In this document: piece after piece, positions 18,703 to 20,000 of the stretch | How the letters are laid out: the number at the start of each line of letters is the position of its first letter | Position numbering within the stretch: the stretch's first letter is position 1 | Source of the DNA: Psammoneis japonica | Taxonomy: Eukaryota | Direction: 5' to 3' | Assembly: GCA_008632985.1 (NCBI GenBank) | Contig: QPGO01000024.1 | Span: 427,403 to 447,402 of the forward strand | DNA: 20,000 nt | Translations under genes and position numbers: made by a program | Notes under the pieces: model-generated | Told to the model about the DNA's origin: nothing | The model's input: only the letters and a program-made list of their open reading frames with translations | Databases searched by the model: none

Positions 18703-19256
18703 GACGTGTTCCAGCTGCACGTGAACCAAATCGTGCACAAAAACGACATTTGCGCGATTTTTGCGCGGTCCCTAACTTGCGATCGAACTTTCACCACCAA
18801 AAGCACAGATTCACACAAATGTGAATGTTTTGCAACACTGACAAGACTCGTGTGAGTGTTGCAATGTCACTGTTGTTGTGCTGTCCATGTTTTTCATTTT
18901 CCAAAAGATTCGCAACACAACGGATGATTTTCGGCGAAAATGTTGCCGTCACTTGGATGTCACCTGAGTGCATCTTTCTACGATGCCACTTGGTGGGTTT
19001 TCTGCCTGCAAAAAAATTTCAGCATAAATCTGCTGACGTGCAATCAGCATTGAGTCTGCTGAGGAAGTTTGTGATGCATGTCCCATGAGGATTTGAGTGC
19101 CCCTCAAAAAACTGTTTAAATGTTCATGCTCTAGAAGCCTGCAAAAGTCAATCCGTCTGAGTGTTTTTGCCAAAATGCCACACACACTTAAACACGCATA
19201 AATTGCGTTCAAAATCTGATTGTCGTTTTGTGCGTCACCTGGGACTGGAACACGTC
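18703..19256 (-). mobile_element. MITE copy T2 (554 bp), inverted relative to T1
   Basis: Near-identical reverse complement of 17801-18355 with both TIRs. Its flanks TCGA (18699-18702) and ACCA (19257-19260) do not match each other. Confidence 0.92.
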
Positions 19257-19662
19257 ACCAGGAGATCACGAACGTCTGGGGCCTGCTCGCCATGGCCGGC
19301 GCGGTGCTGACCCACTTCCAGCCCGAGCGCGTCCACTTCGGCTTCGCCCGCCGGATCCGAGCTGGCGCCTCGTGGGGGGCTCCCACGAGGAGACAGTCGA
19401 TGGGAGCCAGGAGCGCCGCGCCATCGAGAGCCTGGCACGGGGCCAGCATCCTTTGGGTCCACCACGGCCTCTTCCAGGGCTCGATCATGAGCCTGGAACG
19501 CAAGTGGGAGCAGATGCGCGGGGGCAAGGCCTTCGCCACGACGCCCTTCAAGCAGGGCCTGTCGTGGTTCCTCACCTTCCACTTTGTCTGCTTCACCTGC
19601 CTCTTCATCCGGGCCAAGGACCACGAGAACCTGGTGGCGATCTTGACCGACTTCGGCGACCA
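19257..19662 (+). repeat. Inverted, permuted duplicate of the bacterial DNA flanking T1
   Basis: 19257-19357 is the reverse complement of 17700-17800, and 19352-19662 is the reverse complement of 18356-18666. They are joined through the shared hexamer CGGATC (19352-19357). Confidence 0.9.
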
Positions 19663-20000
19663 GACGTGTTCCAGCCGCACGTGAACCAAATCGTGCACAA
19701 AAACGACATTTGCGCGATTTTTGCGCGGTCCCTAACTTGCGATCGAACTTTCACCACCAAAAGCATAGATTTGTACAAATGTGAATGTTTTGCAACACCA
19801 ACAAGACTCGTGTGAGTGTTGCAATGTCATTGCCACTGTGCCATCTATGTTTTTCATTGCGTTAAAAGATTCGTAACACAACGGATGATTTTCGGCGAAA
19901 ATGTTGCCGTCACTTGGATGTCACCTGAACATGTCTTTCTACGATGCCACTTGGCAGGTTTTCTACCTGCAAAGAAATCTCAGTGTAAATCTGCTGACGT
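19663..20000 (-). mobile_element. MITE copy T3, same orientation as T2, runs off the window
   Basis: Begins GACGTGTTCCAG at 19663 and matches T2 from 18703 onward. Confidence 0.9.

Follow-up and report, generated by a model that had tools for sequence, protein, structure and literature searches.

Mosaic MITE copies around an inverted, reordered duplication of bacterial-type DNA in Psammoneis japonica point to homologous exchange between repeats

The window, that is the whole 20,000-nucleotide stretch of Psammoneis japonica contig QPGO01000024.1 that was analysed, ends in a locus where one MITE, referred to here as T, is found three times. The first copy (T1) is flanked by two segments of GC-rich DNA, A and B, and this arrangement is followed by an inverted block in which copies of the same segments (A' and B') are joined directly to one another and lie between two further copies of the element (T2 and T3). 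We consider it probable, with real room for doubt, that T2 and T3 are the halves of one independent T copy, termed T* and approximately 10% diverged from T1, that was split by a permuted A-T1-B unit. Judged from sequence, the event looks like one of a known kind, namely repair or recombination between repeats, at one locus and in dead DNA, and not like a novel composite transposon.

Comparison of the window with itself detects three inverted repeats, pairing 17700-18154 with 18903-19357 (455 nt, 98%), 18018-18666 with 19352-20000 (649 nt, 96%) and 18160-18365 with 18693-18898 (206 nt, 90%), and within the inverted part there are direct repeats spaced 960/961 bp apart (91%). A blastn search of the whole window with T1 as the query returned three copies of T, at 17801-18355, 19256-18703 and 20000-19663, and none in 1-17800. 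Together, the repeat and blastn coordinates bear out the order given in the original prediction, A-T1-B followed by the inverse of T-B-A-T, and the resulting segments are listed in Table 1. T3 is truncated by the end of the window, with about 217 bp lying beyond 20000 and a distal end expected near 20217. A' differs from A at 2 of 101 positions and B' differs from B at 10 of 311. As had been claimed, the inner ends of T2 and T3 keep the TGGT/ACCA flank, and T2 meets TCGA (18699-18702) exactly at its outer terminus, which is a true junction between transposon and target.

Table 1. Coordinates of the segments and motifs of the locus within the window.
Feature	Position	Strand	Basis
PAP2-type phosphatase pseudogene, GC-rich	16820-17590	+	Pfam PAP2; in-frame TGA at 17234-17236
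A0 plus A, last 66 codons and stop of the MBOAT-type gene	17593-17800	-	P0002 against P0004, gap-free
A, duplicated portion of A0/A	17700-17800	-	Inverted-repeat limits
GATCCG at the left limit of the duplicated unit (microhomology copy 1)	17700-17705	.	Sequence
TGGT, left 4-bp target-duplication copy of T1	17797-17800	.	Sequence
T1, complete 555-bp MITE-like element, ends GACGTGTTCCAG / CTGGAACACGTC	17801-18355	+	Repeats, blastn, TIRs
TGGT, right target-duplication copy of T1, opens B	18356-18359		Sequence
B, MBOAT-type coding remnant (..WHGAS..LTFHF..)	18356-18666	-	P0001 relatives
GATCCG at the right limit of the duplicated unit (microhomology copy 2)	18661-18666	.	Sequence
C, 36 bp GC-rich unduplicated flank, TCGA (18699-18702) at its end	18667-18702	-	
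T2 outer part, T*-type segment, T coordinates about 355-555	18703-18902	-	
T2 inner part, T1-type segment, T coordinates 1 to about 354	18903-19256	-	
A', inverted copy of A, closes with the joint CGGATC (19352-19357)	19257-19357	+	
B', inverted copy of B, in frame with A'	19352-19662	+	
T3 inner part, T1-type segment, T coordinates about 355-555	19663-19863	-	
T3 outer part, T*-type segment, T coordinates 218 to about 354	19864-20000	-	

The terminal 12 nucleotides of T1 are perfect inverted repeats, with 18 matches over the first 22. The element is bordered by TGGT on both sides, and excising T1 along with one TGGT restores the reading frame of the MBOAT-type gene in which it lies; the 4-bp length of the target duplication is read from T1 alone and is provisional. 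No Pfam family was found in the three 87-aa open reading frames of T that were scanned, and Rfam gave no significant match for T. In X1, a public DNA run (Logan contigs) that holds 69% of the sampled words of 16000-20000, summed contig depth is 2,542-27,184 over bins of T versus 23-63 over the GC-rich flank, a ratio in the tens to hundreds, depth over T not being equivalent to copy number. In the same run, 506 of the 1,172 contigs placed on 16500-20000 fit two places, and loose contig ends start exactly at 17800 and at 19661/19663. Given the sharp ends, the terminal inverted repeats (TIRs), the lack of coding sequence and the high depth, T is by its sequence characteristics a MITE, a sharply bounded, very abundant, non-coding TIR element, and the identity originally proposed for it is upheld by the TIRs, the TGGT duplication, the 555-bp non-coding body and the high depth. 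Metagenome contigs contained no match to T, either to an exact 26-mer or to a degenerate pattern of its ends. A single 25-nt match in prokaryote genome contigs, where only 25-28 nt align, was taken as chance.

The DNA into which T1 is inserted differs in composition from its surroundings, with 68% G+C in 16000-17800 versus 46-50% in most of the window, the remainder of which shows RING and kinase matches of eukaryote-like character. B and C together have a stop-free translation on the minus strand (P0001), where A and A0 together encode 66 codons followed by a stop (P0002). A search of 1.84 billion representatives returned 13 relatives of P0001 at E<=0.001, the best being 61% and 53% identical; P0003 was matched at E 9e-25 with 61% identity and P0005 at E 1e-11. 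Seven of the 13 were scanned, and Pfam MBOAT was found in four of these, including P0005 at 4.3e-27. The 115-aa MBOAT-type fragment itself matches no Pfam family, and the region of the MBOAT catalytic histidine is upstream of the fragment and absent here. P0002 covers P0004 gap-free from residue 89 to residue 154, its last 66, including the ...PFIYFQF end, and the alignment of P0001 to P0004 stops at residue 84; the first 37 residues of P0001, C included, have no alignment to homologues. Because P0002 runs gap-free across 17700, and given the order of P0001 and P0002 on P0004, the natural order of the segments is B, A, A0 and the joint between A' and B' is derived. T1 thus appears to interrupt cleanly the C-terminal part of a decayed MBOAT-type (AlgI/DltB-like) gene.

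A second gene remnant adjoins the first in convergent orientation. Pfam PAP2 is matched over 17237-17590 (E 2.8e-10, 40.5 bits versus a cut-off of 27.2). The bacterial origin that had been suggested for A and B is supported in so far as both segments are bacterial-type coding DNA. P0001 had no relative in prokaryote genome contigs or among longer proteins, and a search with P0004 returned one locus, 35% identical, in an uncultured-bacterium MAG. "Bacterial-type" would seem the strongest wording allowed for the origin of the GC-rich DNA. The genes at the locus are dead fragments with no evident function.

Several other properties of this DNA were recorded. TA dinucleotides are nearly absent from it, with 2 in the 1,801 bp of 16000-17800 (observed/expected 0.04), 1 in 347 bp (18356-18702), 0 in 406 bp (19257-19662) and 3 in 1,001 bp (5500-6500), compared with an observed/expected ratio of 0.69 in two bacterial control loci, and CG is not depleted (0.71-1.05). 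In X1, two versions of the PAP2 region occur with nearly equal depths of 19-26. The first matches the window exactly and the other differs from it at 13 of 272 positions (16550-16821), 8 of 139 (17147-17285) and 7 of 140 (17361-17500), nearly all of them transitions; this second version could be a diverged allele or another copy of the island elsewhere. Further upstream, an open frame at 6505-7605 (+) matches Pfam TcdB_toxin_midC (E 4.8e-14, 53 bits versus a cut-off of 25) and a nearby frame at 7679-8101 (+) weakly matches FG-GAP repeats. The frames in 6505-8101, at 48-50% G+C, have the look of part of a bacterial-type gene resembling that of a Tc-toxin B subunit. On the minus strand, the GC-rich island at 5500-6500 is adjoined by a 161-aa open frame (4980-5465) with many membrane helices, which by eye resembles part of a MATE-type transporter exon.

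Within the inverted block, B' is joined to A' at GATCCG, read in reverse complement. The two copies of this microhomology were confirmed at the edges of the duplicated unit, 961 bp apart as originally described, and the homology at the joint is wider than noted earlier, CAGCTCG..GATCCG matching at 13 of 15 positions with a 2-nt gap. At a random joint, at least 6 exact bases of microhomology would be expected with a chance of about 0.0013. These observations support the earlier reading of the B/A joint as one formed at microhomology in a circle or a tandem duplication. The A'-B' joint (19340-19375) is in frame (..ARRI joined to RAGASW..), CGG ATC being in frame in both parents, and retention of the frame here is probably a coincidence, the chance being one in three.

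Comparison of the three T copies shows that T2 and T3 are mosaics. Over 17801-18017, for which the T3 counterpart lies outside the window, T1 and T2 differ at 7 of 217 positions. Over 18018-18154, T1 differs from T2 at 1 of 137 and from T3 at 12 of 137, with T2 and T3 differing at 13 of 137. Over 18155-18355 the relationship is reversed: T1 now differs from T2 at 20 of 200 and from T3 at 6 of 201, and T2 from T3 at 19 of 200. For T2, the T1-like stretch as a whole (17801-18154) has 8 differences in 354. In other words, both elements change character between 18144 and 18155: T2 is T1-like up to that point and diverged beyond it, and T3 is the opposite. In the inverted part the two switch points are 961 bp apart, exactly one A-T-B unit. 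At the 35 sites that vary among the three copies, T3 is the odd one at 12 to the left and 2 to the right of 18150, T2 at 1 to the left and 17 to the right, and T1 at 3. Fisher p is 4.8e-6 for sites and 0.0015 for merged events, for a break point that was picked after viewing the data. The T1-like segments of T2 and T3 continue unbroken into A' and B', whose identity to A and B is 97-98%.

The diverged segments do not appear to be altered copies of T1. T1 and the T*-type segments differ at 32 of 337 positions, 31 of them transitions, and in 8 of the 24 merged difference events one copy has TG where the other has CA. One transition cannot turn TG into CA, and T1 and the T*-type segments must therefore already have been separate lineages, as far as comparison of the three T copies of the window goes; the TG and CA states are presumably products of an older TA or CG. 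A contig with a depth of 1,403 has T where T1 has C at 18235, 18237 and 18245, giving TA for CA, and at 18244-18246, T1 and T3 have TACA, T2 has TGTG and this contig implies TATA. From the TG/CA sites and the contig that implies TATA, it follows that T1-like sequence was not the ancestor of T2's outer part. Patchy hypermutation of one T1-derived copy was considered as a cause of the mosaic and rejected, since every TG-versus-CA site would take two changes and the T2 and T3 patches are complementary. Instead, a mosaic with a shared switch point argues for one homologous exchange with an older T copy that was already at TCGA. Beside the inferred crossover, T2 has an unusual cluster in which 6 nt contain 4 changes plus a gap of 1 nt (18155-18160 / 18899-18902), and an X1 contig at single-locus depth (55.6) has three other letters at this cluster, two of them transversions. 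A scar left by repair, or a minor error of assembly, could account for the cluster.

The mosaic also bears on the composite transposon that had originally been proposed. In that proposal, or in a closely related Ac/Ds-type Composite Insertion, T-B-A-T would have been formed from copies of T1 and its flanks joined at a microhomology, and a transposase would have inserted it by its outer T ends, in inverted orientation, at TCGA, 347 bp away. The layout has much of what such an event would leave behind: T ends mark the limits of the block, the outer terminus that is visible abuts new DNA exactly, the inner ends of T retain the TGGT/ACCA flank of T1, and the inner joint is a microhomology, comparable to the 3-4 bp joints of maize Composite Insertions (PMC4270019). 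However, bounding elements that arose as donor copies should be T1-like throughout. What is seen is that the outer 200 bp of T2 are 10% different from T1 (20 of 200) and the outer 137 bp of T3 are 9% different (12 of 137), while the rest is 1-3% different (inner parts, 8 of 354 and 6 of 201). In addition, the TG-versus-CA sites cannot be derived from T1-like sequence by single changes, and two independent breaks within 338 bp would share a 10-bp switch interval only as a coincidence, estimated at about 3%. Simple excision would also have taken T1 out of its donor site. Rescue of this explanation requires two gene-conversion tracts that end at one coordinate, and we regard it as unlikely. The claimed local hop of the unit by its outer ends, in particular, finds no support in elements that are not T1-like throughout.

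Alternatively, A-T-B could have been tandemly duplicated and later rearranged in inverted orientation, without a second insertion, and the outer parts of T2 and T3 could have been converted by other T copies. The abundance of the T family means that conversion donors are at hand, and the joint of the unit resembles that of a tandem duplication. Against this, two conversion tracts would be needed with the same end in T coordinates, in elements 961 bp apart, and a break exactly at the terminus of T2, joined to 18702, is left unexplained. We judge this history to be quite improbable. The mosaic and the 10% outer divergence likewise count against the original suggestion that T2 and T3 originated as tandem-duplication copies of T1.

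If T2 and T3 are instead the halves of T*, the locus could be derived in three steps. First, T1 would have inserted at TGGT in the decayed bacterial-type MBOAT gene. Second, T*, approximately 10% diverged from T1, would have inserted independently and in inverted orientation at TCGA, 347 bp away. Third, one circularly permuted 961-bp unit, consisting of the right part of T1, B, A and the left part of T1 and closed at GATCCG, would have entered T* at T coordinate about 350, driven by homology between T1 and T*. The expected product is a pair of hybrids, T2 comprising T1-left and T*-right, and T3 comprising T*-left and T1-right. Three routes could lead there: a 961-bp A-T1-B circle might have been integrated by one crossover; a break in T* might have been repaired by copying the inverted T1, the template switching once, from 17700 to 18666; or a tandem duplication might have preceded two inversions, the first between T copies and the next between B copies. 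All three routes would be driven by homology, would give the same product and would have no need of a transposase. Structures that approach a palindrome, such as T1-347 bp-T*, are known to break and to promote template switching. Two considerations weigh against T* as a separate insertion: two independent insertions of the same family 347 bp apart are unlikely a priori, and T* is known by one end, its left end and second flank lying past 20000. As for the first route, the specific proposal that a 961-bp circle, made up of the MITE and about 400 bp of foreign-derived flank and closed at the 6-bp microhomology, re-entered the chromosome by homologous recombination with another copy of the MITE is a tentative one, which we think could be right but more probably is not.

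After the exchange, the young copies would have drifted apart by transitions. They differ at 26 of 967 positions (2.7%), and 25 of these differences are transitions, almost all in CG, TG, CA or TA contexts. The differences between 17700-18666 and 18903-19863 are also polar. Among 23 events, 12 have CG in the inverted copy and TG or CA in the forward copy, with 2 in the reverse direction, and 4 have TA in the forward copy and TG or CA in the inverted copy, with 0 in the reverse direction. As judged by homologues, a conserved Arg codon at 18408 has changed from CGG to TGG in the forward copy and a conserved Tyr codon at 18555 from TAC to CAC in the inverted copy, and the homologues suggest that both directions of mutation occurred between the young copies.

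The same differences speak to whether the extra inverted unit exists at all. It could have been created during assembly, by misrouting across a high-copy repeat or by a haplotype chimera, and a repeat as numerous as T invites misjoins. Moreover, all X1 reads deviate from the window at 16893, 16906, 17631 and 17634, and by the switch point at 18899-18902, which indicates that the window contains either small errors or strain differences. However, an assembler that reused the same reads would not produce 26 differences in 967 positions, 25 of them transitions. Furthermore, an exact X1 contig covering 19328-19675 at depth 69.8 carries the variants specific to B' and begins in A'; it has 24 letters before the shared GATCCG, and the A'/B' joint is not bridged by the 31-letter rule. 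The end of an A0/A contig at 17729 and the start of this contig at 19328 would be the 31-mer forks expected if the A0-A joint and the B-A joint are both real. X1 cover of forward B (18372-18605) is almost nil, and X2 and X3 give none anywhere, low cover proving nothing. B and B' have 36% of their 31-mers in common, so that popping of contig bubbles could hide one or the other. Overall, we give an assembly artefact little credence as an explanation of the locus.

Read as the splitting of T* by a permuted A-T1-B unit, the locus is a clean example of how nearby inverted MITE copies could duplicate and reorder the DNA that adjoins them or lies between them through homology, and the parentage of each segment is still legible from its mutations. 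It also carries a caution, in that a sharp TE/target junction at the edge of a TE-cargo-TE layout does not have to mean that the block transposed. Should re-entry of circles be general, the hundreds of MITE copies in the genome would be docking sites for small circles, which would carry neighboring DNA without a transposase, and the resulting MITE-cargo-MITE blocks might in turn be open to movement by transposase as well.

Several known systems place small elements around other DNA in a comparable manner. Bacterial IS-flanked composite transposons (PMC1676026) likewise have a cargo between two copies of a small element; here the flanking copies are recombinant, and there is no sign that the block moved in one piece. 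Pack-TYPE or Pack-MULE elements of plants (PMC8903248) share the feature of a coding fragment surrounded by the TIRs of a non-autonomous element, but each is a single element that carries its cargo between its own ends and is found as several transposed copies, whereas two whole MITE bodies surround the cargo here, in the one copy known. Maize Ac/Ds Composite Insertions (Zhang et al. 2014, PMC4270019) are closer, being local events in which TE termini surround duplicated flanks that are joined at 3-4 bp of microhomology or by homologous recombination. In the maize events, two termini of nearby elements are used, target duplications are 8 bp and the inserted elements are copies of the donor, whereas the bounding elements here are hybrids with a 10% diverged copy, and one outer junction lies in the window.

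Reversed block order with a microhomology joint is taken to indicate a circle or an MMBIR/FoSTeS-type event in work on circle-mediated duplication (Takahashi & Innan 2020, PMC7188851; Chicote et al. 2020, PMC7450558), where the same conversion of A-B to B-A and the same closure at microhomology are described. Both parts of this signature, the permuted order and the microhomology joint, are present at the T locus, where both ancestry switches fall in 18145-18154, a single homologous point of the acceptor, with exactly one unit between them. Compared with the duplications in those papers, the unit here is just 961 bp long, lies 347 bp from its source and bears a MITE, and its entry would have been by homology inside another MITE copy and not at a homology-free site.
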